Below are positions 8,999 through 29,122 of a stretch of DNA of 64,000 nucleotides, in pieces (position 1 is the first letter of the stretch; each line of letters starts with the position of its first letter). The position numbers were made by a program, and so were the translations under genes. The stretch is from a virus. The notes under the pieces are model-generated. The model worked only from the letters and a program-made list of their open reading frames with translations. It did not search any database and was not told the origin of the DNA. Location: IMG/VR virus record IMGVR_UViG_3300039008_000120, positions 1-64,000 of that record, one strand, 5' to 3'.

Positions 8999-9066
8999 AC
9001 CTTTTTAAAATATTATATTACACAATATTATACTATTTTTATGATGTCAAATGATAATTGTGTTTA

Positions 9067-9095
9067 TTGACAGTTTTTATATTATATACTATACT
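9067..9095 (+). promoter_or_regulatory. sigma70-like promoter (TTGACA-N17-TATACT)
   Basis: TTGACA at 9067-9072, 17-nt spacer, TATACT at 9090-9095, upstream of the 9144 ATG. Confidence 0.6.
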
Positions 9096-9106
9096 CTGAT
9101 TTTACA

Positions 9107-9117
9107 ATCTGTTAAAT
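9107..9117 (-). promoter_or_regulatory. ATTTAACAGAT motif followed by N3-TAAAAT
   Basis: Minus-strand TATTTAACAGATTGTAAAAT, about 110 nt upstream of the 8998 start in a divergent intergenic region. Confidence 0.35.
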
Positions 9118-9143
9118 ATAAATGGGAGTTATTGGGGGTTATA

Positions 9144-9551: not shown

Positions 9552-9601
9552 TATATATTATTTAAATATTAAAACTATAGGATTTGGGTTAATATTTTTC
9601 A

Positions 9602-9630
9602 TTGACAACTACAATTAAAGATGATACTAT
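9602..9630 (+). promoter_or_regulatory. sigma70-like promoter (TTGACA-N17-TACTAT)
   Basis: TTGACA at 9602-9607, 17-nt spacer, TACTAT at 9625-9630, upstream of the 9665 ATG. Confidence 0.55.
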
Positions 9631-9664
9631 TTAATAAAAAATAATAAATAAGGATATATAAATA

Positions 9665-10285
9665 ATGGATTACCTTGAGGATTTTAGATATGGAGAAGAC
9701 ATATTGTTCAAAGCAATAAGTAAAGAAAAAAGGGAGTGGGTGGAAGGGTTATACATCAATATACAAGATAAAAATAAACTAACCCATTATATAACAAGAC
9801 CTTCAGGTGAAAAAATTGAAATTTGGCACAGTACGCTATCTATATTTACAAATATGATTGATGTTGACAATGTTAAAATATTCACAAACGATATAATTCA
9901 ATGTAATCCAGATATAATAGATCCAGTAAGAGATCATATTAAGTTTGAATCCGCAATTGATCAAATGAGTGGGGAATATATAGTATCTGATGATGTAAAC
10001 AGTTATGATCCTGATGTACGAGAAACCCCAATTTTTACATTATCTGAAGTTAATAATATTAAGGTTGTTGGAAATAGATATGATGATGCAAAAGAAATAA
10101 GCTTTAAAAAACTAAAAACTAAACGACAAAAACAAAAAGATAGAATTAACAATATTATTGCTGTTGTTAATGACAAAGACGATGCACTAAATGTTGATTA
10201 TATAAAAATGGAATATAACAATAATACTATACATGCAATTGTTTCAATTGTTCAAAAAATGTTATCAGATATTAAAAATATTTAA
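9665..10285 (+). CDS. YopX-like protein with a C-terminal extension
   Basis: 206-aa track ORF. REWVEGLY ... IEIWHSTLSIFT...VKIFTNDI is paralogous to 9144 and 10300. Confidence 0.5.
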   Translation: MDYLEDFRYGEDILFKAISKEKREWVEGLYINIQDKNKLTHYITRPSGEKIEIWHSTLSIFTNMIDVDNVKIFTNDIIQCNPDIIDPVRDHIKFESAIDQMSGEYIVSDDVNSYDPDVRETPIFTLSEVNNIKVVGNRYDDAKEISFKKLKTKRQKQKDRINNIIAVVNDKDDALNVDYIKMEYNNNTIHAIVSIVQKMLSDIKNI

Positions 10286-10299
10286 TGAAGGAATAATAT

Positions 10300-10692
10300 A
10301 TGTACGAAGACATTAGATATGGTGAAAAATTATTTAAAGCTATCTGTAAAAATAGCTTAAAATGGGTATATGGTTCGTATATATTCAAAAAATATTTGGA
10401 AAAAAATCAACATTATATATATAATAATGGTAATGAAATCTTAGTTTGGGGGAATACTGTATGTCAGTTTACTCACTGTTTTGATAAAAACCAAAATAAA
10501 ATATTTGAAAACGATTTATTAAAATTCCATGCTGTTAAATTAAATTCAACCAACCAAGAATTTTCTTTTATCTCAAGTATTGTTTTTGTTAATGGAAAAT
10601 ATATATTGGCTGATGAAATGAACCCAAAAAAATCTGGTAGTGAAATATCAGATGGAATAATAATAGGAAATAAATATGATCCAATACAGTGA
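10300..10692 (+). CDS. YopX-like protein
   Basis: 130-aa track ORF. KWVYGSYIF ... ILVWGNTVCQFTHCFDKNQNKIFENDL. Confidence 0.55.
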   Translation: MYEDIRYGEKLFKAICKNSLKWVYGSYIFKKYLEKNQHYIYNNGNEILVWGNTVCQFTHCFDKNQNKIFENDLLKFHAVKLNSTNQEFSFISSIVFVNGKYILADEMNPKKSGSEISDGIIIGNKYDPIQ

Positions 10693-11341: not shown

Positions 11342-12064
11342 GTGAACGATAATAAAACATCTGAACCCACCGTTGTTTATGTTGCAGATTTAAATGATGA
11401 CATTGATGATTTAATTGCAATAGAATTTTTACACTACAATAATTATCTTAAATATGTTGTTTTGGATTCAGATAATGAAAATGTTGATATAACAAGAGTA
11501 AATTATCTGAAAAATATTGGGGTTATATTTAAATCTAAAATTGAAGATAATGAAAAATATATCTTTGTTGGTGGATCACTAAAGCCAGTAGTATCATTTA
11601 TGGAAAGAGGTAACAACCCAGAGCATCTAATAATACAGGGTGGTTTCGCTGGTACAGGGATTGTTGCACCAAAAGATGTATTAAAAAAATTTAAAGATAA
11701 AGAAGCTATAAGAACATATAATTTAAACAGAGATATGACATCATCAAAATATATAATAGCAAATATCAATAGAATGAAAAATCTACCTATTTTTGTGTCA
11801 AAAAATGTTTGCCATTCGAAAAAAAATACAATCAGCAAATTACATAATGATGATTTTTTAAAAAAATATAAAAATATTAGAAAAAAATTATTACATGATC
11901 TTCTTATGGTTAAAGAAGGTATTAATCATATCAAAAAAGTAGACACCATATTAGGTTACAAAAAAGTCAAATTAATGATATTTAAAGATAATGATATATA
12001 TTCAGAATGGGGTTCCATAACAACAGATACACCAAATTGCTACATTTCAACTTATTATAAATAA
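11342..12064 (+). CDS. nucleoside hydrolase-like protein (weak call)
   Basis: 240 aa, GTG start. The N-terminal VVYVADLNDDIDDLIAIEFL resembles the IUNH DxDxxxDDxxA(I/L) motif, recalled from RihA. Confidence 0.4.
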   Translation: MNDNKTSEPTVVYVADLNDDIDDLIAIEFLHYNNYLKYVVLDSDNENVDITRVNYLKNIGVIFKSKIEDNEKYIFVGGSLKPVVSFMERGNNPEHLIIQGGFAGTGIVAPKDVLKKFKDKEAIRTYNLNRDMTSSKYIIANINRMKNLPIFVSKNVCHSKKNTISKLHNDDFLKKYKNIRKKLLHDLLMVKEGINHIKKVDTILGYKKVKLMIFKDNDIYSEWGSITTDTPNCYISTYYK

Positions 12065-12067
12065 TAT

Positions 12068-12091
12068 AATAGGGGATAAGCTCCCCTTATT
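12068..12091. terminator. hairpin terminator between convergent genes
   Basis: GGGGA/TCCCC core stem with a TAAGC loop and AT extensions, between the 12064(+) end and the 12103(-) end. Confidence 0.55.
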
Positions 12092-12102
12092 ATATTTTAA
12101 TA

Positions 12103-13956
12103 TTAAATACCAAACATAGCACCCAAAGCACGAGACATTTTACTATCACCATTATTTTTCCCGGCACTTATTTGTTGTAATTGTCTCAATTGTAAATCTA
12201 AACCAGTATGATTAATATCGTTTGCAATTATATATTCTTTTACTACTCTATTTTTTAATGAATCTTCAACCTCTCTTTGAACATTGGTTGCAGTTTGATT
12301 ATGTTTATTTTTATTTTGTTTCTAATATGTTTTAAGAAACCTAAGTATTTTTCGTGAACTCTTATGTTTTGTTTGTGCTTGTGCTAAGATCTCAACAGTG
12401 AAAATACATATTGCAGTTGCCATTAATAGATCATCATGTTCTAAACCAACAGGTTTCCCCCTTCGTTTAATTACAAATTTCATTGCCTCATCAACTAAGT
12501 CTTCTGGTAATGTTTTATGTTTATATAATAAATTTGTTGATAATGTTATTAATGCTTTTTTACGTGTTGAATCAGTTGTTACAAAACCTAGCTTATTGGG
12601 TTTACCATCGTTATCAATGTCAAATTCATATGTATCTGTTTTCTTTACATACCGTATATTTGGTAATAATAAATGTGATAAATCAGATTCTTCAAATTTT
12701 TTAATTAAATAAAAACCCCTATTTCGTTCAATCATTATTTTTGCCCACTGATCAGTCTTAATATTTTTATAATATTTAGACAACTCAAGTAAATTATCAA
12801 AAATATTAAGTCTGGTTAAGCATGTGGCCTCTATACGAGATTGTGTTAAATTCTATACTGTTATTGCATTATAATGTGAACCCTCTTCCTGAACATCAGC
12901 AGATATTAAATAATCATCAGTTTTTGTTCGTTTATAATACACCTTAACGTGATCAAGCATTGTATCAATTTCTTTTTGTTGATCAATTAACATTAATTTT
13001 GTATCTTGAAAATATGTATCATACGGTAGAATCCACTGCATATCAAGCTCTGTTTTAATTGCTTTTTTATCATAATTAAGTAATTTACACTGCTCATCAT
13101 ACTAATCTTGATCACGATATGGTATTGTATCCCATGCTCCCTCAATTAGACGAAATCCAGACCCCTTAAATCCTTTTTTACGAACTGATTGGATTTGATT
13201 ATAAAACCATGAACCATATAAATTAGGTGTAGATAATACTATCATCTTACCATTTGTTGCAGATAGTGTGAATAATGAAGCCTTAAATATCTGTTCAACT
13301 CCATTTAGATAATCTGCTTCATCTAGTATAAGCCATGATGCTGACTGTGAACGACCAGATTGCTTTCCACTTGTCTGAGCAATAATTTTACTTGAATTTC
13401 TCTTATTACCTAAAACAAATTCTTTTTCATTTCTTTTAAGCTCTGATCTTCTTAAAAACCACGGAAGAGAATCATATTGAAACTTAAATTCACTAAGTGT
13501 CTCAATGGAATCTTTTTCGGTTTTAGAATATAATAATACTGTCTTGTTATTGTTAAATGTTAAAAACTATAATGCACACGCTAAGCTTGTCGTAGTGAAT
13601 CCAATTTGCCGTGATTTTGTACTGATAACTTTATCATCGTTAAATATGGCAGTTGCTAATTCAATCTGAATATCATACATTACAAATTTAACCATATCAC
13701 CCAGACATCTATTTTTTAATATTTCTGGCATAGTGTCTGGGTTATCAAACTTGTTCTTAACATATATATATTCATTTATAAAGTATAGCCAAGACTCTCT
13801 ACATTTTTTACGCTCTTCTTTAATTGTCTCTAATGTAGCATCACCTGTTATAAGTCTTCTTAACTATATTTTATCAACCTCATTAAGTTTACCTTGATCA
13901 TTTCTCACTTTTAATTTCTTTATTAAAGCTAATGTTTTTTTATCAAACTTTACCAT
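12103..13956 (-). CDS. terminase large subunit (617 aa, 5 in-frame TAG)
   Basis: One frame runs from the ATG at 13956 to TAA at 12103-05 and absorbs track ORFs 12853..13041 and 12322..12783. TAG at 13864, 13567, 13102, 12853 and 12322. Walker A-like KSRQIGFTTT, Walker B WLILDEADY, nuclease-half LEHDDLLMA. Confidence 0.8.
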
Positions 13957-13965
13957 AAATTTTAA

Positions 13966-13975
13966 CCTGTTAAAC
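13966..13975 (-). promoter_or_regulatory. GTTTAACAGG motif immediately upstream of the TerL start
   Basis: Minus-strand CAGTTTAACAGGTTAAAATTTATG; the motif ends 12 nt before the ATG. Confidence 0.25.
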
Positions 13976-14118
13976 TGTACATCTATTAAATTAATTATAT
14001 AAATATAATATAGGGGTTAATTAATAATACCAAATGGGGTGTTTATCTAAAGTCCACATAACCACTTGGTTGGTATGGGGTGCCCAAAATATGTACATAA
14101 AATATAAATGTTTTATTA

Positions 14119-14352
14119 TTATTCATATATATCTAGTATTTTTATCCAGCGATCCGTATTATTATAATGATCTCTAAGTAAAAATCTTAAATTATTATTT
14201 TTTATACGCACAACATCAAGATAATCATCTTCGCAAGCATCCTTTATATCATCTGTTAATTCTGCACATTTTCGTATTCTTCCAGATGTATATAATATTA
14301 AATATTGTTCCAATATATATAACTCCTTTATTTTTTTTATATCAATATACAA
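14119..14352 (-). CDS. hypothetical protein
   Basis: 77-aa track ORF upstream of TerL. No family recognised. Confidence 0.5.
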   Translation of the reverse strand: MYIDIKKIKELYILEQYLILYTSGRIRKCAELTDDIKDACEDDYLDVVRIKNNNLRFLLRDHYNNTDRWIKILDIYE

Positions 14353-14394
14353 TATTAGAATATTTTTTTCAATTAAATTTATATTATTTTTTTA

Positions 14395-14423
14395 TTGACA
14401 AATTAAATTAAATATTATATGTT
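14395..14423 (+). promoter_or_regulatory. sigma70-like promoter (TTGACA-N17-TATGTT)
   Basis: TTGACA at 14395-14400, 17-nt spacer, TATGTT at 14418-14423. A TGATATAAT extended -10 also lies near 14500. Confidence 0.5.
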
Positions 14424-14547
14424 TCTATAAAAAAATGAAGGACTATTATATAGAACATCTTATCCAATCAATTATAACGATTTTTTATTACCAAAGTACA
14501 TGATATAATAATACACCAAATAAAAAAAAAATAAGGAGAAATTAAGT

Positions 14548-14955
14548 ATGGAAAAAACGTATTTGATAATTTTTGATGATGATTATATGGTATCCACATC
14601 AGAAATCACAGACAATGAGATTAAAGGTGTTAAAGATGGTATAAATGAAATAGTAGAAATTGGTACACCATTAAAAAAACTGAACAGACATGGTGATTGG
14701 GTTGATATACCAATTATAAATGATATTGTAATAAACGATGATACACTTAAAATAACAATCAATGGAAAATCCGGTTCAGGTAAAACAACACTTGCACATG
14801 TCATAATGAATGCCTTGTCAAAATATGACACTGAAATAACTATACATAACGAAGCTGAAATTCGTTATGATGAAATACCAAAAATACTAAATGATGCACC
14901 AAATATACTTAAAGGTAAATCAATTGATATTTATGATGCACAGTTACAACGATAA
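14548..14955 (+). CDS. P-loop NTPase-like protein
   Basis: 135-aa track ORF. RBS AAGGAG. Walker A GKSGSGKTT. Confidence 0.6.
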   Translation: MEKTYLIIFDDDYMVSTSEITDNEIKGVKDGINEIVEIGTPLKKLNRHGDWVDIPIINDIVINDDTLKITINGKSGSGKTTLAHVIMNALSKYDTEITIHNEAEIRYDEIPKILNDAPNILKGKSIDIYDAQLQR

Positions 14956-15028
14956 AAATAACTTAAGGATAATTATAAAATGGAAAACAACAAACTAGCG
15001 GTTTTAAACACAAGTATTGCAACAGTGG

Positions 15029-15265
15029 ATGGTGGAATATGATATCGAAATTGAAAAATATATGAAAGAAATAAAAGCAGAATTAAAAACGGATAAACAG
15101 GGTTATGATTTATATTTATTAATCGTTAACACTTTAACTCAACACCCAGAATATAAAGAATGGAAAAGATGGGGGAGCATTGATTCAAGGGAGGTTGGTC
15201 ATCTCGACTTAAACCAAGATGAATTTAACAATTTATGCTCTAATCCTAAATTTAATCAACTTTAG
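15029..15265 (+). CDS. hypothetical protein
   Basis: Track ORF 15017..15265 trimmed to its first ATG. Preceded by a 20-codon ORF (14980..15042) that has the better RBS. Confidence 0.45.
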   Translation: MVEYDIEIEKYMKEIKAELKTDKQGYDLYLLIVNTLTQHPEYKEWKRWGSIDSREVGHLDLNQDEFNNLCSNPKFNQL

Positions 15266-15310
15266 AATTAATAAACTAACACACAATAAACATGGGCTGT
15301 TGAGGTAATA

Positions 15311-15736
15311 ATGAACACAAGTACAAGTAAAATATTAAAATTTGTACACTTTAAGCGTGTTTTTTTATATAAAAAAACACGGATTGTTTGGTGCGATGGT
15401 CGAGATATTCAAGAAATCCACAAATAGGATGACAAAATTACTTATAAAATCTGGACAGTTTTTATGAATTATGCCAATAACAACATAATTAACGATTATA
15501 ATCCATGGTGCGAATATAATATAATTAAAGGATACGTATCAACATGTGATATGTGCTTATATGGTAAAAATAATAGAATTTGTAAAAAAACTGATCCAGA
15601 TAATCTTAGTTATTATCAAGAAATTATAAATAAACTTAAAGTTAATTTTAATAATAATAACATCACCTCTATTGGTGAGGTGTTTGCCACAAAATTCAAA
15701 GATGAAATTTTAAAAATTGATAATGAATTTTATTAA
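15311..15736 (+). CDS. hypothetical protein (141 aa, 1 in-frame TAG)
   Basis: ATG at 15311 with a GAGGT RBS. The frame runs through TAG at 15425-27 into track ORF 15464..15736. Confidence 0.55.
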
Positions 15737-15748
15737 GATAATAACAAC

Positions 15749-15922
15749 ATGAACCGCAATGAATTTATTATAGTTGAAAATTTAAAGCTTTTAAAAATTA
15801 TAGGCAAAAGCCATTATGATATCCATCAAATTATGGAATATCATATGGGATTTGAGTATAATAAAAAATACATCAATAAATTATTAAAAGACTTAGAGGT
15901 AGAAAATAGTGGAGACAACTGA
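15749..15922 (+). CDS. small hypothetical protein (57 aa)
   Basis: ATG at 15749, open to TGA at 15920-22. Below the track cutoff. Overlaps the next GTG start. Confidence 0.4.
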   Translation: MNRNEFIIVENLKLLKIIGKSHYDIHQIMEYHMGFEYNKKYINKLLKDLEVENSGDN

Positions 15923-16274
15923 GCTACAAAAAGCACTAGAAGAAATTAAAAAATTAGAAAAATATAAAGATGACCTTTTAAAACAAAAAAGACAAAACAC
16001 TAGATCTAATTATGTTAATATGGTTAAAAATATACATCATATAATAAAAGATGATAATGATATTCAAGACATACCATTATCTAAGGTTGATTTAATTTTA
16101 CAATCAGCAATGAATTTAAATGAAAATAATAATAAATATTCTGATGTAACAATATCATTAGATTATAAAACCGCAAAGTACCTAAAAGAATATTTAAAAA
16201 ATCCTAATCAAAAAAGAGATAATAAAATAAAAGATAATATATTGACATTATTAAACTCAAAAATACCAGATTAA
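15909..16274 (+). CDS. hypothetical coiled-coil-like protein
   Basis: 121-aa track ORF, GTG start with GAGGT 9 nt upstream. A terminator follows. Confidence 0.5.
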   Translation: METTELQKALEEIKKLEKYKDDLLKQKRQNTRSNYVNMVKNIHHIIKDDNDIQDIPLSKVDLILQSAMNLNENNNKYSDVTISLDYKTAKYLKEYLKNPNQKRDNKIKDNILTLLNSKIPD

Positions 16275-16280
16275 ATAGGT

Positions 16281-16297
16281 GGCATCCAAGCGATGCC
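16281..16297. terminator. bidirectional hairpin terminator
   Basis: GGCATC-CAAGC-GATGCC followed by GTTTATTT, between the 16274(+) and 16304(-) gene ends. Confidence 0.65.
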
Positions 16298-16303
16298 GTT
16301 TAT

Positions 16304-16627
16304 TTAATTAACAATATATTTGATATCCAGTGCTGTTAAAATCGTTTCCAAATCCTAATTATTAATTTGACCAATATAATTATCATTGTGTTTAACTGTT
16401 ATATAATCATCTAACATTATTAATGTAATACCATTTGTATGTTTCAAAATATTACTCTATTTTTCAATATCATCATTGGACTTATTTAATTTAGTTGTTA
16501 AGTCAACAGATACATCTATTTCTGATTCATCAAACGGCTTTTCGATATCCATTTTATCTAACTCATCAAGCTGTTTCGCTATTTCTATACACAATGATTC
16601 AATATTATCATTTCTTTCACTTTTCAT
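16304..16627 (-). CDS. hypothetical protein (107 aa, 2 in-frame TAG)
   Basis: ATG at 16627 with an AGGTGG RBS. Hand translation MKSERNDN...IEK*SNILK...INN*DLETIL...VN ends in TAA. No ORF in the track because of the TAGs. Confidence 0.6.
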
Positions 16628-16737
16628 AATAACCACCTAAGTATAAGTTAATTTATATATAATATATCAATAATAAAGGTGTACATTTTTATAAACATAC
16701 ACCTTTTTATTGTATCTATAAATTTAATTATTTAATA

Positions 16738-17196
16738 TTATACTACTTGTTGAGTTTGAGTAATTCTACCACTTGCATCATACGTATACTTCTATTTCTC
16801 AACTACTTTATTATCTGATGTTCTAGTATATGTTATATACTCAACTTTTTTATTACTATTGTATGTTATATTCGCTTCATACCCACTTTCGTATGTTGTT
16901 TTAACAACATTGCCTTCATTTCCGGGTGTAGTTGAATATTCAATATTAGTAACATTATCAGATTGCAAAATTTGAAACATAGATGAACCATGTACTGGTG
17001 TCTATTTTACAGTAGGTGTTATTTGTGATAATCGCTAATAACTGTTATTATCTTTTTGTAATGCCAAACGGTTTATTTCCCATGCTTGGAAATCTGCTGG
17101 TTTTTTACTTATTCTTTCAGCCCTATCTGTATATTCAAATGAATGTGGAGCATGTGATTGATTAAATGGAACTTTTTTATGTGGTACTGTCTGCAT
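16738..17196 (-). CDS. tail-fibre-associated protein (152 aa, 3 in-frame TAG)
   Basis: ATG at 17196. Absorbs track ORF 16792..16980. TAG at 17035, 17002 and 16792. N-terminal HAPHSFEY is shared with the next gene. YTYDASGRI is YD-repeat-like. Confidence 0.55.
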
Positions 17197-17208
17197 ATTA
17201 TTAACCTA

Positions 17209-18711
17209 TTATATATTAATGTTTATTTTAATATTTGATTCACCACCTGATAGCTTAGTTACCTTTGTATTTGATGGTGAATATTCAAGCTTATAATTAT
17301 TTATATTTTCTTCTTCCTATTTGCCAGCCTTTTTATAATTAATAGTTAGTTTTTTAATTGACGGAGTTTCATTGATATCACAAGGAGTTTTGAATATAAA
17401 TGCAAAATCAATAAATTGTTTATTTGACATATCATAATTAGTAAAACCCTCTCTTAATGTGGCACGTAATGACTGGATGCCTAATCCAGTTGCACTATCT
17501 GCTTGTAAGTCACTTAAAATCTAAGTACACCATTTGTTTGTATACTAAGTATTCCCTTTGTCGAAACTTACTGCCCAGTTTATGAATGTATGTGCCGGTA
17601 TCTCAGCATCCACTATAACAGATTCAATCATCTTGCAATTTTCAAGCTTAATTTGGTTTGGTTTAGTTTTTATTACACATGATTTATTACATGTATATTC
17701 TCCAGTTTCAGAAAAAAAACCATTTTTATAACCCCCACTCGATATCAAATTATTAACATCTTGAACTTGATTTCGCCTAGATTCTAACTCAAATATTAAT
17801 CCAACCGATAAAACATTATTATCATCAAAGTATGGAACATATACCTCATCATTATTAATAGAACCCAATGATAATGTTTTTAATAAATTCCCAAGACTAT
17901 TATAATATTTTATAGTTCGATTGTCAAAATCACACAATATTAACATTTTTTCATTTCGAGGGCATTTCTATTTATAAACCATATTATTATCTGGGTAATC
18001 TGCACCACCAAAACCCTACGTACTATTAGTCTTGCTTATACGCAATACACCAATATTATGTTCTGTACTAGTTGCTTTAATGTTAAATGATACCTTCCCT
18101 GATGATACACCTGTGCTAGGTGGGCAATACATACTTAAAAATTTACTAGCAACAGCACCATTAAATGCACACCTTAAGTTTGAGTGTTGATCTAATTCGA
18201 TTCCATTTGTATTTTTACTGCTCGAATATGTGGTATCAAAATATGAGTGTTGATCTAATGCTGGATTAACAACTTTCTTTAATTGTATTTTATCATTATC
18301 CGCATCAAATATATTATCTGGTGTATCAAAATCACTAAGGGTGCTACTATTATAATTTAATACATTATTATATTGTGTCGTATTTGGCACTTCTTTACGC
18401 ATAGTTACAAATCTAATTAAATTAGGATCTGCATTATGTGAAATCTCTTTTATATCATTGTTATTAAAATTTAAACACTCAACTTGTTTTACATATCTAT
18501 CTGTTGTAGGTGTTGATATTGTTACCTTATTCTATTGTATTGGCTCAATTGCATCCAAGACGTAATATTCATTTACAACTTTTGCCCATTTTCCAACATC
18601 AGTTTCTTTAAATCCAATTGCACCATTTAGTTCTGTAACGTTTGCATATTCAAACGCATGAGGTTTGTGAATATCTTTTCCACCTAGATCACTATGACGT
18701 ATTGTATTCAT
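17209..18711 (-). CDS. tail fibre or tail protein (500 aa, 6 in-frame TAG)
   Basis: One frame from the ATG at 18711 to TAA at 17209-11 joins track ORFs 18016..18402 and 17545..17946. TAG at 18532, 18016, 17968, 17545, 17521 and 17317. Confidence 0.65.
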
Positions 18712-18730
18712 TTTATATGACCCATATGTT

Positions 18731-18760
18731 AAAAAAGTAGGTCTTTCAACCTACTTTTTT
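18731..18760. terminator. A-run/T-run flanked hairpin terminator
   Basis: AAAAAAGTAGG-8 nt-CCTACTTTTTT between two tail-fibre genes. Confidence 0.6.
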
Positions 18761-18854
18761 TTATTAGAATACTTATGCGATTAGTTTTTTTCCTGACTGA
18801 TCTACTATAAACTCACCTGAGTCTGTAATTATATACTTCTTATTCTCTTGCGGG

Positions 18855-20543
18855 TTAAAGAGACACCGCATATGCAACTGATAGCTTAACAACAGGCTCA
18901 CGAACTGTGCTACCAGATACATATACTTGGACAATATCACCTTCAGCTAAGGCAATATTTAAGTCATCTTTATGACCCCCATTTGTATTTGTTATTGTTA
19001 ATTTACCAAGTGAAATTCTCTCTCCATTTTTAAATATATGAATATCACTTGTACCTGTAACATTCGCACCTAAGTGAGCTGTGATGCCAGTTACACACAT
19101 ATCTTTAGATACTCGGATTGATGATGCGTTTGTTAATATATCACCACCAATTTTAAGGTATTTACTATTTACCATACCTTTCCTTGAATATATGTATGTT
19201 TCTCTGGATGACAACCATTTATTACGTGTGGTGTCTTTTCCATACACTGTACCATCAATCAATTTAATATCATTGACAGTCATCCCAAAATTTTCAATTG
19301 CAGTACTGTTTGCTGATATTTCATCCGCATTCTTTTTAACTTCAGCATCAAGTAACTCTCTTGCACTAAATGCTGTGGTTGCACTATCCATATAGTTAGT
19401 ACCGGAATGTGCCTTAAAAGTACCATCTGCATTTAAATTTAATGCAGATTCAATTGCATCAATTTCGGCTTGTGTATTCCCTGCACCAATCGCATTTGGT
19501 GTATAGCCAAATTCTATATCATCTACATCAACTTTTCGTGCAACATCATGTTTACCAAGTATATAAAACTGATATCCTGCCTATCTATCACCCTCATATA
19601 CTGGGATTGTTGTTCCCGGTAACAGTTCATTTTCAGGTTTACCATCAAGATCTGGGCGACGTGTTAAAACCTACGGCTTTGATGCATCACCAACTTCAGT
19701 TACATCATATACACCGTTTTGTTTTTTATCTGCCTGTCCAGCTAATAATATAGTTGATGTTGCTGTTATTGTATGTGAATCTATTGATACCAATTTTCCA
19801 TTTGCATTAGCTGTTAATTTTGATGCATTATCATCTGCAACTGGGGTATATGTACACGCAGGTAAAGGATCAGTTGTTGCACATGATACATGTGCCTTCG
19901 GGGATACACCTTGCATCATTGTTAAAATCTATGATTTTCGAGCAACGGAATTCATTGTTTTAGGATCAGTTGTAGTTGTGACTTCGTTGTCACCCATACT
20001 AAGATCACCGGTCATTGTGTCACCGGCTTTATTAACTTTTTTATTTAAATCATCAGCAACAGTTGTTTTTAAAGTTTCTAATTTGGTGTCAACCGCTTTC
20101 AATTCAGCATCTAATAATGTACTATCTTCTTTAAGTGAACCTGACGCATTAAGATAATTTGATGTTGTTCTTGCTTTATATGAACCATCATCTTCTAAAC
20201 CACTACCTGTTTCAATCGCATCAATCTCTGCCTGAAGTTCAGTATCTTTTTGTTCAAATGCAGTGCGTAACTCAGCATCCTTATCATCTATATACTTTTT
20301 GGATGCTCTCTTGATCTAATCAATACCATCTGAAGCACTAAGATCATCTGTTCCATCATTAACCACAATTGAACCAGCGGTAATTAATGTCTTAAGATCA
20401 CCTTGTAGTGCTGTGCTTAGTTCATCAGATGTAAATTCACCTGATAAAATATCACCACTAGCACCATCGGGCATATCCTACCCTAAACTCTCAACAAATA
20501 ACACGTCTCCCGTCTTATTTATTAAATTAATAATCTATTCCAT
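18855..20543 (-). CDS. tail fibre protein A (562 aa, 6 in-frame TAG)
   Basis: One frame from the ATG at 20543 to TAA at 18855-57 joins track ORFs 19671..19919 and 18855..19391. TAG at 20535, 20478, 20316, 19929, 19671 and 19581. Contains NGVYDVTEVGDASKP*VLTRRPD, a common tail-fibre motif. Confidence 0.75.
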
Positions 20544-20608
20544 TGAATTTAACCTTTATTTTTTTGTTAGATTAAAATAATTAACCATATTATATAAAAT
20601 TAATTATG

Positions 20609-20618
20609 TTTTTTTATA
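20609..20618 (-). promoter_or_regulatory. TATAAAAAAA box (late-promoter candidate)
   Basis: Minus-strand CTGTATAAAAAAACATAAT, about 65 nt upstream of the tail-fibre ATG. The same box occurs upstream of the scaffold and capsid genes. Confidence 0.25.
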
Positions 20619-20634
20619 CAGTATGATCAATAAA

Positions 20635-21015
20635 TTAATTGATTATGTTACTTTTACATTTTTTATTTTTACATGTATAACTGATAGAATTTCTTTGCTT
20701 TTTAGTTATATGGTTTTTCTTCATAAAACATCCACATACTTTACACCTATTTACTGATAAGTCCAAAACTTTTGACCTTGAAACGTTATACATGTTTGAA
20801 ACATATTGACGTAATTGTTTTTTAGATAGATCACCAACACTTTCAATGTAACATTCATCAATTATTGTCACCTCAATATTATTATCAATAAAATAATCAA
20901 CATCTCCATCATATAGATATATTTTATTTATAACATGTGTACAATTGCCAATGAAATCTTCAAATTTAGAATTCGGGCAATAATCTAAAATTATTAATTT
21001 AACTAAAAATTCCAT
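20635..21015 (-). CDS. hypothetical Cys-rich protein
   Basis: 126-aa track ORF with CKVCGC ... CKNKKCKS at the C-terminus. Confidence 0.55.
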   Translation of the reverse strand: MEFLVKLIILDYCPNSKFEDFIGNCTHVINKIYLYDGDVDYFIDNNIEVTIIDECYIESVGDLSKKQLRQYVSNMYNVSRSKVLDLSVNRCKVCGCFMKKNHITKKQRNSISYTCKNKKCKSNIIN

Positions 21016-21024
21016 TAATTATCC

Positions 21025-21303
21025 TTACCAATTATAATCACCTGTTTTGATATCTTCGCAAATGTCAATAAAAGCAACAGGATCAATATAATTATTACCC
21101 ATAATTATATCATATAACTCTCCAAATATCACATCTTCATATGTTCCATTGTTAAGCTGAACTTTATACCCTATACCCGGATCACCATACAATTTACCAT
21201 TAACAAAATCCAGATATGCCATGATTAAATTTTTGAACTTTACTTTTTTATCAGTATCATTAAGTTCATTAATGATTGGTGTAATTGCATTAGATAATTC
21301 CAT
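21025..21303 (-). CDS. hypothetical protein
   Basis: 92-aa track ORF. Confidence 0.55.
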   Translation of the reverse strand: MELSNAITPIINELNDTDKKVKFKNLIMAYLDFVNGKLYGDPGIGYKVQLNNGTYEDVIFGELYDIIMGNNYIDPVAFIDICEDIKTGDYNW

Positions 21304-21323
21304 AATAACTCCATTATGTTTTT

Positions 21324-21965
21324 TTATATTATACTTGTAATAAATTTTTTAGCTAAAGTTATATCAATATTCATTTTAAATAAAATATCATATGCTGAAT
21401 AAAAGTCAATAGATTTTTTATATGGTCTATCATTAACTAACGCATCAAATATGTCAATAATACTAACTAGCTTAACATAATTATTACATATTTTAATATT
21501 ATATGGATAACCAGTTCCATTTATATTCTCATGATGAAATAATGCAGTTTGTGCAACGATACTTGGCAATTTTAATGTAGATATAATATTATAACTATAA
21601 ATTGGATGCATATGAATTAAATCATATTCATTATCTGTTAATTGTTCTTTTTTTTGTAAAATTTGTGATGGTATATATAGTTTACCAATATCATGTAATA
21701 CCAACATATATCCCATTAATTTCATTTCACTATAATTAAATTTATAAAACGATGAATACTTTAACATAAATAACATTGATGTGATTAAATGTAATGCAGT
21801 ATAATAATCATGTGATAACATTAATTTTAACTATACTTTAATTTGTTCATCTTCAATAATTTCACATGCAATATTTTTAATTTGTAAATTAAACGAATTT
21901 AATAATAATTTTAATTCATTTTTTAAAGTTCCACCATTGTTAATAATTTCATATAAATTATCCAT
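21324..21965 (-). CDS. HD-GYP domain phosphohydrolase (213 aa, 1 in-frame TAG)
   Basis: Track ORF 21324..21821 extended through TAG at 21831-33 to the ATG at 21965. LHDIGK, HMHP and HHENINGTGYP motifs. Confidence 0.7.
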
Positions 21966-22102
21966 TATATAAACCTAATATAAATATCTACTATTATATA
22001 TATTTAACATTATTAAATAACAAATTAATTATAACTAAAACATAATAAAAAATAACAATTAATTATATAATAATTTTTTAATTTTTTTTTGGAGAATATA
22101 TA

Positions 22103-22723
22103 ATGAATGTTAATATTGAATCTATACGACAAAAAATAAATGAGATAACTGAAAAAATTAATAATGCAACATCTCAAGATGAACGTGATGAGTTGTTCCG
22201 TAAACGTAAATTTTAGTTAAACTCATTACATACTAAAAAACATAAAACTCGACTTGCAGAAATACAACGTTGTGCTAAAAATGCAAAACCTGAACCAGTT
22301 GAACCAAAAACACCTATTAAGGTTGTAATTAAAGAGGTTCCTGTTGAAATCATTAAAGAGGTTCCTGTTGAGGTTCCTGTTGAGGTTCCTGTTGAAAAAG
22401 AAATTTTAGTTGCAACAGATTCATCGGGTATTCCAGATATAATACATACTGATGAATTTATAGCAATACTGAAACAAATTAGAGAAAATTATATTAACAC
22501 CCAAACAAATCTAAAAGTTGGTGATATTGTTACAACCGCAGATAATACCAAAGTAAAAATAAAAGAATTTATCATTGATGAAAAAAGCGTTTTTAATAAA
22601 AATGGTGGAATTTTTGCTAAGGTTAAAAAAATAATGAACAATAAAAATGAAAGTAAACGATTTTTTGGTAAAGATCCAAGAGGGATCCAAGTAACTTTAT
22701 TAAACAAGGTTGAATCAAAATGA
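22103..22723 (+). CDS. hypothetical head-module protein with EVPV repeats (206 aa, 1 in-frame TAG)
   Basis: ATG at 22103 with a GGAG RBS. TAG at 22214-16. The TGA stop overlaps the next ATG (ATGA). Confidence 0.55.
22334..22393 (+). repeat. GAGGTTCCTGTT 12-nt coding repeat (4 copies, 3 in tandem)
   Basis: Copies at 22334, 22358, 22370 and 22382, encoding EVPV units. Confidence 0.85.
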
Positions 22724-24177
22724 CAAATAAAATAAATTTTTTAGATATTTTGCATAATCACGATAAAAAAGAATCAACATCTAGTGCAGATTTTGAACAT
22801 AATGCTCTGTTAAATAATGTAAAATATAAAGAAACTGATACACATATGTAGATTTATAATTTCCCGGGGAGTTTTGGTGACACCCAAAATAAAAATAACA
22901 GAGTATATGATTAGTCAACATTAAAACAAGCAACCACGTAGTTCCTTGATATTAAGGATTCAAACCCCTATTTTACATACATTTTCGATGGACATAGGGA
23001 TGATGATAGCTATGAAAATATTATAGGACGGATAGTAAATCTACACCCTGATGAAAGCACTAAGTGCATTTTAGTTGATCTTAAACTTAACAAAGGTTCA
23101 AAATCTTACAAAACAATCGAAAATATTATCAAAGATAAGGATCCTATCGGAATATCAATGAGAATAATTTCACCAGACACATTAGTTATGTCAAAAGAAG
23201 AGATTAGTCAAATAAATGAAAGTATATTATGGTTAGAAAATGATAACCCTAGTCTTTCAAAATTAATGTCTAATGACGATGAGATTGAATATGTTGTTGG
23301 AGAAGCATTTATATGGAGATTTGATCTAACATAGTTTCCTAGTTTTAACCGATCGTTTGTTGGTGAATTAGGTAAAACAAAAAACGAATCAGCCATTTCA
23401 TTTACAAAAACAATAGATTCATGTGGTTTGTTTGCTAAAAATGATAAGTGTATAACCGACTCTTGTAAGTTTAAACATACAATTAAAAGCTTTTTAGATA
23501 TTATCAATAATAGTAAAGATGAATCAATTACACTAATAAATGAACATCCCACATTATACGATGACATGCTAAAATTTGCATATATGAATTTATCAGAATT
23601 TAACTTTGATGAAATAAATTCAGAAAAATATTTAAGAGAAAAATTATCTGATTTTGAAATATCAAGCGGTGACAAAGATGATTAGATAAAAACCATCAAT
23701 GATATATGTGGTAAAAATAACATATTATCATATGTTACATCAAATAATTTAATTGATGTTGATAAATATGTTAAATTGGTTAATACTACTTTAACTAAGC
23801 TCATTAACGTTGATGAGATTTTTTATCAAATGGTAAGCACTAATTACTTACACTAGTTAATAGTCTCAACATTAATATTAGACAATAAAGTTAATGTAAA
23901 AATAAAAAATATTGACAATTTAAAAACCTTATTACAAGATACTGCTGATATAGAAAAAGATACCAACATTGATATTTTAGTAAAATTTCTAAATGATATG
24001 GATAAAACTGAAATCAATGTATATGATTTTACTAATATGATATTTACTTATATATATGGATACTTTGTTAGGTATACTGATGAAATACCACCAATCACAA
24101 TTCTAAATGAATCATTTAAAAGATTTTATAAACCAAATACAAAAAAACTATTTAAACACTCTTTTGCCAAAAAATAA
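22720..24177 (+). CDS. prohead protease-like protein (T4 gp21-like N-terminal half; 485 aa, 6 in-frame TAG)
   Basis: One frame from 22720 to TAA at 24175-77. TAG at 22849, 22912, 22939, 23332, 23683 and 23854. NKNNRVYD / FDGH / FDLT*FPSF resemble my recollection of gp21 NRNKRLYP / LNHP / VDAVWGPSA. Lies directly upstream of the scaffold and capsid genes. Confidence 0.5.
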
Positions 24178-24208
24178 GCGTTTTACAAAAACTACAAAAA
24201 AACCGATA

Positions 24209-24241
24209 ATGCTCATATATTAAATATATGGGCATTTTTTT
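24209..24241 (+). terminator. rho-independent terminator
   Basis: 12-bp stem ATGCTCATATAT/ATATATGGGCAT (one G-U pair), a 3-nt loop, then a T-run. Confidence 0.6.
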
Positions 24242-24266
24242 ATATAAAAAATCTCTGTTTTTAAAT

Positions 24267-24280
24267 TATATAAAAAAATA
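24267..24280 (+). promoter_or_regulatory. TATATAAAAAAATA box (late-promoter candidate)
   Basis: About 60 nt upstream of the scaffold ATG. A second TATATAAAAAAT lies at 24241-24252. Confidence 0.25.
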
Positions 24281-24339
24281 TAATTAATATGGTAACATTA
24301 TTTAGTTTTAAAATAACCAACAATAAAAAGGTAATATAC

Positions 24340-26040
24340 ATGTTAAAGAATAAGTTAATTAAACAGTTAAAAGACCTTATTTCTACAAAGAAAGAAGGTG
24401 AAATGACTGTTAAATTAGATGATGAGTCATCTAATATTTATGCAGAATTGTTAATACCGTTTATGGAGTTAACTCAGTCTGAAACACTAGAAGAGCTATC
24501 AATTGCTTTAAATGCATTAGTTGATAATAATGAAGCAGATGAACTCTATAAAAGTATTATCACAATTTTCATGGAAGAAATTAGTGAAGTAGATGAGTAT
24601 GATAAGGAACTTGATACACTTTCAGATAATATCATTGCCGTTTCTAATACATTCAATAATCTTAAAGAACAAAAAATAGTAAACGATGACAAAACTGAAT
24701 CTACTGAATTTGATAAGCTATCAGATGAAATTGTTAAATTTCTAAATGAAGATAATAATGGTGATACTAATGATGGTGGCGATGTAAATAACACTGATGG
24801 TACTGGAGACGTCAATACAAACGATGGTAATACCCCTGATAATACACCATCTGGTGATGAGAATGTTTTAGGTGACTATATACTATCCGATGATATTGAT
24901 GAAACTAAATGGTCTGAGATAAATAAAATCGAGTTAAAAAATCGTCTTGAAACAGAATTAACAAATGCTCCTGATGATAAAAAAGAAGATATAAAAAAAG
25001 TAATTAATGAAGTATATGCGATCGTTAGATCAGATGATAAAGCAGACTAGCTTTACCCACATCATACAATAAATGATAAAAATGAAATTCAACTAAATAA
25101 AAATGGTTTAACATCCGCAACACTAATGTTCCTTAAACCAAGTAATAGTAAAAATCTAACAACAGATGAAAAAACTGCTATTGCAAAACACCTAGTTAAA
25201 CATTACTCAAAAAATGAGATTGATGCACCTGCTAAACTTACTAAATTATCAGAATCTAAAGAGTCCACCATCATAATCAACGTAACAGATGATGAAATGA
25301 CAGAATTTGGTGAATTTTTTAAAGTCGGGGCTGGTGATGTTGGTGTATATGTTGGACTCATTGAAAACCTTTTAACTGACTTAACAAATTCTGGAATTAT
25401 TCAGTTAGATGGAAATGATGATAACAGCAACTATGATGAATCAGTTATTAGTGTTAAGTTGAACAAAGATCAAGTTAAAGAGGTTATCAATTATTTAGAT
25501 ATTATAAGCACTGATGTAATTAAATTACTATCGAATGATTTTGACTCTCTTTCATATAAAGCAACTGATGATGAATTAACTACATCATTTAAAGAAGCAA
25601 CCGCTATGGTAACATCTTTAAAAGAAAACGTTGAAGAGCTTGAGTCAACAATTGCTGAGCGAGATGAAGAAATTGCATCATTAAAGCTCAAAACTGATAG
25701 TGAAACATTAAATAAAAGCAAGTTTGAAGCAATTATCAACTTTATAAAAACAATTGAAGATGTAGATGATAATATTTTAAATTTCATGGAAAGTGTTATC
25801 GAAACAAATAATGAAAATGAAATTAATTATCTCCTTAAATTAAGTGGAAATTTCATGAAACAAACAAATAAACCACCTACATTTAAAAAGGTTAGTATGA
25901 TTAATCAGGTTGATTCTCAAAGTTTAGAAAGATTTAATAACATTCTAAATAATGATGTAGTAAATCAATCAAACAACGAATCAACTAAAATTACAGATGA
26001 AGTTTCAAAAACCGTTAATTCTATTGCGGAATTATTTTAA
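24340..26040 (+). CDS. scaffolding-like acidic protein (566 aa, 1 in-frame TAG)
   Basis: Track ORFs 24289..25050 and 25126..26040 share a frame and are joined by TAG at 25048-50. Start moved to the ATG at 24340 (AAGGT RBS). Acidic and coiled-coil-like, with an AD*LYPHH motif. Confidence 0.55.
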
Positions 26041-26083
26041 TAAGTAATGTAATAAAAGATAATTAATTAATAAACTACTAAAA

Positions 26084-26095
26084 TATAAAAAAATA
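26084..26095 (+). promoter_or_regulatory. TATAAAAAAATA box (late-promoter candidate)
   Basis: Lies 14 nt before the capsid gene's AAAGGG RBS. Confidence 0.25.
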
Positions 26096-26108
26096 AAGGG
26101 TTAAAATA

Positions 26109-27236
26109 ATGAAAAAACCGATGATTGATATTAGTAAGATTGGATTAGACAATAAAGAATCATTAGAAGTTGCAGGGTTCACTTCTAAAGCTAAAGAAAA
26201 GTATCAATTAGATGCTCATAAAAGTGATACTCTAAATTTAATGTATTCAAACATTTATCGTCAATTTAAAGTATTTAAGGAATCCAATGCTGGACAGGTT
26301 TCCAGCGATATTGAACCATTTAGAAATATTGCGATTGTTGCTACAACTAAATTCTTCACTCAAAATATTTTAAATAAATTGGTATCCATGCAGACAACAG
26401 ATAGTCCATATGGTTTAATTACATATGTTGATTTTCAGTATGCTGATGATCATACACCTGATAATATAAAAGCTGGGGATTCTATAGTAAAAAGATCAAA
26501 AACATATGGAAATCACGACACTGAACAAACAAAATCAAGAAGAATTAAAACAAGCGTAACAAACAAGCCTATTACTGCTGGTGTGAGAACAATTGAAGCG
26601 AGTTATACATTAGAATCTTGGTTGGCTATGGCATCTATTAAAGGACAAAAAGATGCCAAAAACTTTTTAGATAAAACATATCTCGAAGTAATTGCATCTA
26701 AATTAAGGGATGAAGCAGAATTTGCTACAATGGATGCACTTTATTCTGCATGTTTACCTCAGCATATTGTACCATTTAGTGTTGATGGTACTGATTGTGA
26801 TGCAAGAGATTGTGATGCTAGAAAATTCCTAGATAGCATCGAAGAGGCTGGGCAGAGAGTGTACGATACACACAAAGTATAGCCTAACACAATTGTAGTT
26901 GGTTCAGACGCAATGAAAATCATTCGCCGTGGTGAAGTGAAGATTGTTAATAAAAAAGGTTCTGATGGTTTACCATCATCTGTTGCTCGAAATTATCAGG
27001 GTGTAATGGATGATAGATATTCAATACTATATGACCCAGAGCTTTCGGGAGCATTAATGACTTGGAAAGACTCTAATTCAACGTTCGGAGCATCCGCCGT
27101 ATATACAAGTGTGGTGCCTCTTGCTGTAACTCCACCTATAACAGAGAAAGACTTAAGCACTTACCGTGTAGTTTATACAGTTGACAGTGTTGACGTAGTT
27201 CATCCAGAGTTAATTGCACGAGTAGATATAGTTTAA
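26109..27236 (+). CDS. major capsid protein (375 aa, 1 in-frame TAG)
   Basis: Track ORFs 26109..26882 and 26913..27236 share a frame and are joined by TAG at 26880-82. Follows the protease and scaffold genes, and a strong terminator follows it. Confidence 0.65.
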
Positions 27237-27272: not shown

Positions 27273-27672
27273 GATAAGATATAAATCAGTTTATGTAATA
27301 GACTTACCTATCACATAAGGGGATTATAATATGACAGCAATATGTGAAATATGTAATGAAAATTTTTATGATAATTATAGAAAATTATCCCATCATTTAC
27401 GTTCAGTTCATGGATTAAATGCCAAAGAATATCATGACACTATATTAAAAACACCAAATTCATGTAATAATACTAATTGCTCAAAACATGTTAATTTTAA
27501 AAACTTACAAATTGGTTATTTAAAATATTGTAGTAAATCTTGTGCAATAAATGAAATGGATAGAGAAAAAGCAACAAAAGAATATAAAAAAAACATGATC
27601 AATAAATATGGAGTAGATAATCCTTCTAAAATTAAACATGTTAAAGATAAAAGAAAAAAAACAAACATCAAG

Positions 27673-27747
27673 CGATACGGCGGTATCGCTCCGATATGCT
27701 CTGATGTAATTAAAAGTAAAATAAAAGAAACTAATATTAAACGATAT
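27673..27747 (+). repeat. 75-nt perfect direct repeat, copy 1
   Basis: Identical to 27949-28023 (offset 276 nt = 92 codons). Encodes RYGGIAPICSDVIKSKIKETNIKRY. Confidence 0.9.
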
Positions 27748-27948
27748 GGAGTAGATAACCCGTCTAAGCATCAAGATATCAAAGATCGGATTAAACACAC
27801 AAATAAGCAAAGATATGGTGTTGAAAATGTTTTCCAATGTGTTCATATTCAAAATCAAATAAAACAACAATATTTAGTGCAATATGGGGTAGATAACCCA
27901 TCTAAGTGCGAAGATGTAAAGAATAAAAAACAAAAAACTAATATTGAA

Positions 27949-28023
27949 CGATACGGCGGTATCGCTCCGATATGCTCTGATGTAATTAAAAGTAAAATAA
28001 AAGAAACTAATATTAAACGATAT
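27949..28023 (+). repeat. 75-nt perfect direct repeat, copy 2
   Basis: Identical to 27673-27747. Confidence 0.9.
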
Positions 28024-29122
28024 AACACTGATAATTATATGCAATCAGAAACACTTATTGAATATTATAAAACTAAATACAATTTGATATTAGCTCAAAA
28101 TAATTTAAAATTTATATCAGATTATACAACAACTGACAATATATATGATTTTGAATGTACTAAGTGTGGTCATAAATTTACACGCTATTTTAATACTACA
28201 TCAATGCCGAAACTCACATGCCCTAATTGCAATAAAGGAACAATGATAGAAAACTTAATAAAAGAAATTTTAAATAACAATAATATCAAATTTATAGTTA
28301 ATGATAGAAATGTTATAGCCCCATATGAATTAGATTTTTATTTACCTGAGTATAATATTGGAATTGAATGTCATGGTTTATATTGGCATTCTGAACAGTT
28401 TTTAAAAAAACATACAAAAGGTAATCCTAAACACTATCATTTAAACAAATTAAATTACTGTACCAATGCAGGTATAGAATTATTACAATTTTATGAAGAT
28501 GAAATTTTAAATAAATTTGATATAATTTCAGGTATTATTTTATCAAAGTGTAATAGATTAAAACCGATTTGTTATGCCCGTAATACTGAAATTAAACTTA
28601 TAAATAATTCGGTTGCTAATGATTTTCTTGAATTAAACCATTTACACGGTAGATCAAGTAAAGAAATATCACTGGGTGCATATTTTGATGATACATTAAT
28701 TGCTGTTATGACATTTAAAAAATCTGCAATAAGTCGATCTAATTATGATACATGGGAATTAGATCGATTTTGTACATTAAATAATTGTCATATACCGGGA
28801 ATCGCAAGTAAATTATTTAAATATTTTATTAAACACAATCCTGATATTAATAAAATTACAACATACGCTGACTTGAGATTTAGTGTAGGTAACTTGTATA
28901 AACAATTAGGATTTAATTTTATACACCAAAGTAAACCAAATTATTTTTACATAATCAATAAATCTCGTAAACATAGATTTTCTTTTAGAAAGTCAATATT
29001 AAAATCCAAATTAAGTGGATTTGATAATAACTTAACTGAATATAATAATATGCTAAACCATGGTATTGATAGAATTTGGGATTGCGGTCACTTAAAATTT
29101 GAATGGAATCGTTAATAATAAA

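Follow-up and report, generated by a model that had tools for sequence, protein, structure and literature searches.

We analysed a 64,000-nucleotide stretch of viral DNA (positions 1 to 64,000 of the IMG/VR virus record IMGVR_UViG_3300039008_000120; hereafter the window), which carries packaging, head and tail genes with in-frame TAG codons and, at its end, the 5′ part of a gene for a tryptophanyl-tRNA synthetase (TrpRS; Table 1). An initial annotation, made from the sequence alone, had proposed that TAG is read here as tryptophan (Trp) and not as glutamine (Gln), and had placed four of these TAGs on conserved Trp positions. Comparison with related contigs supports this reading: on the strength of the aligned sequences, we put at roughly 80% the probability that the late and structural genes of this marine T4-like phage, with a genome of about 233 kb and a G+C (GC) content of 26%, use TAG as a second Trp codon, with TAA and TGA remaining stops.

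In-frame TAG codons in the late genes of a T4-like phage

About 70 in-frame TAGs are spread over 29 mostly late genes of the window, which include those for the terminase, tail fibres, baseplate-like proteins, a portal-like protein, the capsid protein and a ClpP-like protease. When TAG is read as a sense codon the broken frames merge into long genes, and no gene in the window requires TAG as a terminator. Under the standard code the window has 99 open reading frames (ORFs) of 100 codons or more, of which 63 stop at TAA, 15 at TGA and 21 at TAG; all 21 of the latter are internal fragments except one, which has TAA/TGA two codons on. TGA and TAA keep their stop function in this phage. Frames extend over hundreds of codons and match homologues before and after each TAG, an essential gene carries up to seven TAGs, and TAG positions are conserved among relatives at 45–70% identity.

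The codon is unevenly distributed. Two late and structural blocks (12103-27236 and 35170-38007) are rich in TAG, in contrast to a 12-kb block that is almost free of it (Table 1), and early genes avoid the codon, as do the genes for the TrpRS and a CCA-adding enzyme. In the late genes TAG has overtaken TGG, accounting for 0.85% of codons against 0.49%.

The window, with a GC content of 26%, encodes both a gp17-type large terminase (TerL; profile against PDB gp17, E = 6.8e-85) and a gp23-type capsid protein (Pfam Gp23, 1.6e-12), the combination that marks T4-like head packaging. A portal-like gene aligns weakly to T4 gp20 (pairwise E = 0.003 over 289 residues), and rIIA and rIIB lie just past the window end, near the TrpRS gene. 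No relative was found in GenBank or the cultured phage collection by DNA, capsid protein or TrpRS protein, nor did a metagenome scan with a capsid alignment turn one up. Against GenBank phages, the DNA of the 18-kb late region gives a single match, over 49 bp (16480-16528), with 92% identity to g151, an endonuclease gene of Yersinia phage phiR1-37. Relatives were found in metagenomes only: two IMG/VR contigs, of 180 kb (L001) and 276 kb (L010, IMGVR_UViG_3300021166_000052), and several contigs from Logan, ENA and JGI.

Assemblies made independently by JGI and Logan reproduce the window with 100% identity, and others differ from it at seven sites, none of them a TAG; strain-level TAG/TGG polymorphism, sought among these assemblies, was not seen. 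Because of these identical assemblies and a 232,818-bp contig that bears a TrpRS identical to that of the window, we suggest a whole genome of about 233 kb. One tail fibre has its counterparts in marine cyanophages, pelagiphages and Methylophilales phages, and one related contig was binned with a metagenome-assembled genome of Ca. Neomarinimicrobiota, which together indicate a marine setting. The source is an uncultured marine T4-like phage, for which the binning of that relative is the only hint of a host.

Table 1. Features of the window, with coordinates in window positions; L-numbers denote related contigs or loci.
Feature	Position	Strand	Observation
Large terminase (T4 gp17-like)	12103-13956	-	5 in-frame TAGs: 13864, 13567, 13102, 12853, 12322
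TAG in terminase, residue 285	13102-13104	-	W column in homologues; TGG or TAG in clade
Tail-fibre protein (gene A)	18855-20543	-	6 in-frame TAGs
TAG in tail-fibre gene A	19671-19673	-	W 5, F 2, A 1 in 8 cultured-phage tail fibres
Head-module gene, 485 amino acids, two genes upstream of capsid gene	22720-24177	+	6 in-frame TAGs
TAG in head-module gene	23332-23334	+	TGG-Trp in L001, L010; TAG in L004
Acidic gene directly upstream of capsid gene	24340-26040	+	1 in-frame TAG
TAG in acidic gene	25048-25050	+	Trp in L004, L010 (GDWK.PHH, SDWQWPHH); TAG in L001
Major capsid protein (Pfam Gp23)	26109-27236	+	Single TAG at 26880; Trp in all 3 relatives
Almost TAG-free gene block (12 kb)	38118-50778	-	Borderline exception: 47514-48014 with one TAG at 47832
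CCA-adding enzyme (tRNA nucleotidyltransferase)	42766-44079	-	TAG-free; PolyA_pol 1e-20, PolyA_pol_RNAbd, HD
Portal-like protein	50779-52659	-	4 in-frame TAGs
ClpP-like head-maturation protease	60939-61709	-	2 in-frame TAGs (61500, 61092); phrog_94 9e-34, Pfam CLP_protease
Phage TrpRS gene, 5′ part	63487-64000	+	TAG-free; 338 amino acids in all; runs past window end

Residues aligned with TAG

We compared every available orthologue between the window and eight related contigs, with TAG read as X. The residues that align with TAG (n = 162) are Trp (66), tyrosine (Tyr; 34), phenylalanine (Phe; 15), Asp and Leu (8 each) and Glu (7), with no Gln at all. Trp makes up about 0.3% of residues in the pairwise alignments (TGG is about 0.5–0.6% of codons in the window genes) and 41% of TAG partners, an enrichment of about 150-fold that excludes chance placement of TAG on Trp; for Tyr the enrichment is four- to fivefold. 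When the count is made instead over distinct columns in which TAG stands with one or more sense residues (n = 59), the commonest residue is Trp in 17, Tyr in 8 and Gln in none. In the closest pair, L001 and L004 (72% identity), TAG faces TAG 18 times, Trp 6 times, and His, Tyr and Phe once each. Within the late genes TAG behaves as a synonym of TGG, with which it interchanges among relatives, and it occupies deeply conserved Trp columns.

Substitution probabilities estimated from the same alignments (an empirical matrix) give Trp the highest likelihood. For pairs that include the window, the log-likelihood is lower by 84 units for Tyr, 118 for Phe and 218 for Gln; over all pairs it is lower by 156 for Tyr and 417 for Gln. 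As a control, the sense codons with at least 15 observations were scored with a matrix to which window pairs had not contributed; it decodes 59/59 window sense codons correctly. The same matrix assigns TAG to Trp, by +29 over Tyr, a margin similar to the +22.5 of TGG itself. The partner spectrum of TGG (P(b|W): W.45, Y.19, F.18) is closely matched by that of TAG. Real Tyr codons, by contrast, align with Trp in less than 1% of cases and with Phe in about 10%, whereas TAG aligns with Trp four times as often as with Phe. The excess of Tyr over Phe among TAG partners can be attributed to the codon itself, because TAG lies one mutational step from TAT and TAC. Both the lack of Gln partners and the call of the control classifier bear out the proposal that TAG stands for Trp and not Gln.

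The four TAGs singled out by the initial annotation are where it had placed them, and their flanking peptides are exactly as quoted there: PYRDQD-X-YDEQ in the terminase, NGVYDVTEVGDASKP-X-VLTRRPD in the tail fibre, FDLT-X-FPSF in the head-module gene and AD-X-LYPHH in the acidic gene. The first two (13102-13104 and 19671-19673) read CTA on the plus strand, as their genes lie on the minus strand. In the terminase, the column of TAG 13102 holds Trp in 18/18 distant standard-code homologues and in every clade member without a TAG there. A profile built from the distant homologues only gives Trp an emission probability of 0.69 at this column, so the profile comparison that had been proposed as a check comes out for Trp and not for Gln. 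The T4 gp17 segment DDGWQWSIQ, as quoted in the initial annotation, is correct, and its first Trp aligns with the site. Altogether three terminase columns with clade TAGs are Trp-dominant in distant standard-code homologues (W = 0.37, 0.69 and 0.69). At the two with invariant Trp the clade has TGG or TAG only, with no TAT, TAC, CAA or CAG; at the third (W = 0.37) it also shows Phe and His.

The tail fibre has tblastn matches to annotated tail fibres of Synechococcus, Pelagibacter, Methylophilales, Bacillus and Roseobacter phages. In the eight cultured-phage homologues the motif cited by the initial annotation takes the form QNG.Y.V...G.gs..W.LtRa.D, and TAG 19671 falls on its Trp (Table 1).

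For the two sites upstream of the capsid gene, near relatives support the claimed Trp position, and no match supports the proposed function. At both, two of the three relatives carry Trp, as TGG, and the third carries TAG. In the wider and rare family of the head-module gene, which has only 15 members among 1.84 billion representative proteins, the 23332 column holds Trp, TAG, Tyr, Asn and Ser, the more distant members having Tyr, Asn, Ser or a probable TAG. This gene had been labelled a protease by likeness to T4 gp21, which does contain the quoted VDAVWGPSA. No homology to gp21 or Peptidase U9 was detected with Pfam, PHROG, PDB or hhalign (probability to gp21, 0.4%), and tblastn recovered no family. 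The gene and gp21 share the short motifs NNRVYD, DGH, SMR and FD..W.PS, from which a link may be suspected, with homology unproven. The gene of the window that does match head-maturation proteases is the ClpP-like one, in which TAG 61092 corresponds to Trp in L020 and Phe in L019. The acidic gene, labelled a scaffold, likewise has no Pfam, PHROG or PDB match; its scaffold function is suggested by position and is unproven. The motif cited for it (...TTWHLPV...) could not be traced, and no W.[LIVY]P motif occurs in T4 head proteins.

The phage synthetase and the search for a suppressor tRNA

The full TrpRS sequence was recovered from an identical contig. Its best NCBIfam family is trpS (TIGR00233, 79.6 bits, with tyrS models at 45–55), its homologues outside the clade are all bacterial TrpRSs, and its best sequence match in the PDB is the iron–sulfur (Fe–S) TrpRS of Thermotoga maritima (2e-14). 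An AlphaFold model (pLDDT 83.5) has TrpRSs as all of its top 50 Foldseek PDB matches, the best being 2g36 (E = 1.6e-13). The protein keeps the HIGH, KMSKS and GxDQ motifs, the Trp-pocket Asp (YP.LQ..D) and the four Fe–S cysteines. In synthetases of this class the anticodon is bound by the C-terminal helical domain, which in the phage protein has diverged and is shorter by about 14 residues. By family, motifs and modelled fold the enzyme is a tryptophanyl-tRNA synthetase, with Trp charging its putative activity and its choice of anticodon a prediction. The gene is TAG-free and syntenic in L019, L020, L021 and L143, all of which carry in-frame TAGs; its neighbourhood reads 5′-3′ exonuclease, small ORF, TrpRS, glycosyltransferase, rIIA, rIIB and dUTPase.

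The CCA-adding enzyme is conserved in L001 and L004, and its presence suggests a reliance of the phage on maturing or repairing tRNAs. No release-factor gene was found among the larger window ORFs that were scanned, smaller ORFs being outside that scan.

We searched the window, both flanks and all relatives for tRNAs with ARAGORN (default and relaxed settings) and Rfam (gathering and E-value thresholds), a search that leaves about 150 kb of the phage genome outside it. Neither the window nor the 9 kb on each side of it yielded a tRNA of any type, and none was found near the TrpRS gene in relatives; when aligned, the intergenic region upstream of that gene shows AT-rich spacers and small hairpins only. 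The 276-kb relative L010 has an array of 15 clear tRNAs just after its capsid and APS-kinase genes (11822-18664), together with three further weak candidates, one of them Trp(CCA)-like with A33 (16134-16205) and the others at 17953 and 18140; none of these 15–18 tRNAs has a CUA anticodon. When viral and metagenome collections were scanned for CUA tRNAs by pattern, no clade contig was among the matches listed.

tRNAs that combine a CUA anticodon with a Trp-type anticodon arm proved common in these scans, which list at least 120 of them in metagenomes. One unrelated, low-GC, phage-like contig (L240) carries both a tRNA-Trp(CCA) and a tRNA(CUA), at 1288-1359 and 6583-6654, the anticodon arms of which differ only at the anticodon (AACGGTCTC[C/T]AAAACCG), although their acceptor ends are unlike (A1-U72/G73 versus G1-C72/A73).

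Immediately 3′ of the capsid gene, 27319-29115 (+) encodes a 598-residue protein that combines DUF7487 repeats with a zinc ribbon and a Vsr-like nuclease; the place of this gene is taken in the relatives L004 and L010 by an APS-kinase-like gene or a tRNA array, and a mobile homing nuclease is the probable identity of its product. A full-length methyl-accepting chemotaxis protein (dCache, HAMP and MCP signalling domains) is encoded at 31463-33451 (-) by a TAG-free gene, an auxiliary gene of a kind unusual in phages. Three paralogues with a YopX domain (Pfam) stand in a row at 9045-10692 (+).

Alternative decodings

Several observations weigh against a simple decoding of TAG as Trp. Not every TAG lies on a conserved Trp; the clearest departure is TAG 20316 (-) of the tail fibre (ARKS-X-ILT), which falls on the conserved Tyr of K.YVD, Tyr in 6/8 homologues. 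Tyr is also the second commonest TAG partner (21%). Tyr codons make up 4.83% of codons in TAG-containing genes and 5.80% in TAG-free genes, so that TAG and Tyr codons together in the former about equal Tyr codons in the latter; codon usage fits Trp or Tyr alike and is not decisive. The synthetase scores below the curated trpS equivalog cut-off (79.6 versus 176.75 bits). No tRNA(CUA) was found in the 82 kb that the window and its flanks make up, out of about 233 kb, or in about 120 kb of relatives. Finally, a Codetta-style emission product over the distant terminase profile alone (12 TAG columns) favoured Leu and Phe, which we attribute to background frequencies that dominate at variable columns; this approach was replaced by the clade-level codon comparisons and the control-validated empirical matrix.

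Some of these points would fit an ambiguous decoding, in which TAG would stand for several aromatic residues at once, or for an aromatic amino acid that is modified or non-canonical and is loaded by the divergent synthetase. The partners of TAG do rank as Trp, Tyr and Phe, the synthetase has diverged far and its C-terminal domain is remodelled, and the sequence examined yielded no tRNA that would fix the identity. We nevertheless regard such decoding as unlikely, because the partner spectrum is close to that of TGG, the surplus of Tyr over Phe is explained by mutational distance, the Trp-pocket residues are conserved and there is no positive sign of a non-canonical substrate.

Tyr is the only serious rival to Trp. 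It could be inserted through an amber suppressor derived from tRNA-Tyr (supF type), charged by the tyrosyl-tRNA synthetase (TyrRS) of the host or by the class-Ic synthetase of the phage in the role of a TyrRS, and would account for the 34 Tyr partners, the Tyr column of the tail fibre, a Tyr codon gap about equal to TAG usage and the weaker matches of the phage synthetase to archaeal-type TyrRS. A Tyr codon, however, should face Phe far more often than Trp, and the opposite is observed (Trp 66, Phe 15); the log-likelihood lies 84 to 156 units below that of Trp; the clade shows neither TAT nor TAC at the invariant-Trp terminase columns; and the nearest relatives of the synthetase in sequence and fold are all TrpRSs. 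We judge a Tyr decoding to be quite improbable.

There is very little room for the ordinary code 15, in which TAG specifies Gln, as public gene callers assumed. It has in its favour a published survey that knows only TAG-to-Gln and TGA-to-Trp recoding in phages (bioRxiv 10.1101/2021.08.26.457843), and the full-length terminase relatives in the database do show Gln at TAG sites. In the DNA of those relatives, however, every such Gln is a TAG codon translated with code 15, so these residues reflect an assumption and are uninformative about the amino acid. In three of the database terminases (P0001, P0002 and P0008, from loci L002-L004), 6–11 residues given as Gln per protein are TAG codons, several of them on invariant Trp positions, and P0074 and P0078 are probably mistranslated likewise. 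Genuine Gln is never a TAG partner (0/162), its log-likelihood is 218 to 417 units below that of Trp, and Gln codons are used equally, at 2.5%, in TAG-containing and TAG-free genes. That the TAGs are real stops, in pseudogenes, through assembly errors or with low-level read-through by host tRNAs, is similarly far-fetched, for although no suppressor tRNA was found in the sequence examined, the frames continue with homology past each TAG, the TAG positions are conserved, independent assemblies agree and leaky read-through of up to seven TAGs in an essential gene would yield too little protein.

A proposed mechanism and comparison with known recoding systems

With these alternatives weighed, we return to TAG as a Trp codon and to how it might be established. 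In Escherichia coli, su7 (supU) is a tRNA-Trp that has acquired a CUA anticodon through a single anticodon change and is charged mostly with Gln: glutaminyl-tRNA synthetase (GlnRS) reads U35, whereas TrpRS needs C35. Because C35 is an identity element for bacterial TrpRS and GlnRS tends to capture CUA suppressors, the TrpRS of the host would be expected to charge a CUA tRNA poorly, and a dedicated, divergent phage enzyme is likely to be needed. We hypothesize that the phage TrpRS, expressed early, charges an amber-suppressor tRNA with a CUA anticodon with Trp after infection, and that this tRNA may be encoded in the part of the genome beyond the sequence examined. Genes that bear TAG would become translatable only once this machinery is in place, which would couple the code change to the lytic programme; a delay of late-gene translation by recoding has been proposed for other recoded phages (bioRxiv 10.1101/2021.08.26.457843). 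AT mutation pressure may drive the replacement of TGG by TAG, which takes a single G-to-A step, and could in this way explain why TAG has overtaken TGG in the late genes.

Taken as a whole, the following picture has, in our view, somewhat better than even odds: this is the first phage lineage with a TAG-to-Trp code, set up by a phage Fe–S-type TrpRS the anticodon-binding domain of which has been retargeted to a CUA suppressor tRNA, the two forming a natural orthogonal pair, and gene callers that offer TAG only as Gln mistranslate the whole lineage. Prodigal-gv and geNomad-style pipelines translate these phages with code 15, and later phage papers assume table 15. If TAG is Trp, such translation puts Gln at conserved Trp positions, an error already present in the public protein collection that we searched, and it will degrade homology searches and structure prediction for the lineage. 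The TrpRS and its still-unseen tRNA would also be a candidate orthogonal amber-suppressor pair for synthetic biology.

Among phages with a code unlike that of their host, only TAG-to-Gln and TGA-to-Trp have been observed (Borges et al., bioRxiv 10.1101/2021.08.26.457843). We found no report of TAG-to-Trp in a phage in the openly accessible literature, subscription-only papers being outside the scope of that survey, and the code of Balanophora plastids is the known precedent. On the published explanation, the two phage recodings arise because the GlnRS and TrpRS of the host happen to recognise the corresponding suppressor tRNAs. This pairing would be broken by a phage that reads TAG as Trp, which would imply that anticodon recognition can be rewired by a synthetase that a phage brings with it.

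The code-15 phages (crAss-like, Lak, Garnet and similar ones; bioRxiv 10.1101/2021.08.26.457843, PMC9523058) are alike in concentrating TAG in late, structural and lysis-stage genes, with early genes and the code-change machinery in the standard code. They too carry in-frame TAGs in essential genes, and their frames open up once TAG is given a sense meaning; the host, too, presumably keeps to the standard code, and an alternative table is needed for gene calling. They differ in the amino acid, which is Gln there and would be Trp here, and in that the synthetase of this phage is a TrpRS. About 35–40% of them encode a suppressor tRNA(CUA); none was found here in the 82 kb covered, of about 233 kb, or at the loci of relatives. 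The ‘Jade’ phages recode TGA and have an operon of TrpRS, release factor 1 (RF1) and tRNA-Sup(UCA) (bioRxiv 10.1101/2021.08.26.457843). As in the phage studied here, their TrpRS gene is free of the recoded codon, and the enzyme is proposed to charge a suppressor tRNA with Trp. Here, by contrast, TGA is still a stop (15/99 long ORFs) and TAG is the recoded codon, and no release-factor gene or suppressor tRNA was seen adjoining the TrpRS gene. The [4Fe-4S] TrpRS of T. maritima (PDB 2G36) is the best match in both sequence and fold and shares the four cluster cysteines, but identity is about 20%, and the enzymes of the phage clade have two small insertions in the catalytic domain and the shortened, diverged C-terminal helical domain.

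The closest parallel in the codon itself comes from parasitic plants. NCBI genetic code 32 of Balanophoraceae plastids, in which UAG specifies Trp, is described as exceptionally rare (Su et al. 2019 in bioRxiv 10.64898/2026.01.09.698701). As reported there, those plastid genomes are, like the phage genome, extremely AT-rich, and their route to the code was a duplicated tRNA-Trp with its anticodon mutated to CUA. The setting differs, being the organelle of a parasitic plant, with RF1 lost; here the change would be made by a virus, transiently, in a cell that presumably keeps RF1, and with a TrpRS of the virus’s own. If the assignment holds, the phage would add to the plastids a second natural example of UAG read as Trp, arisen independently and likewise in a very AT-rich genome.

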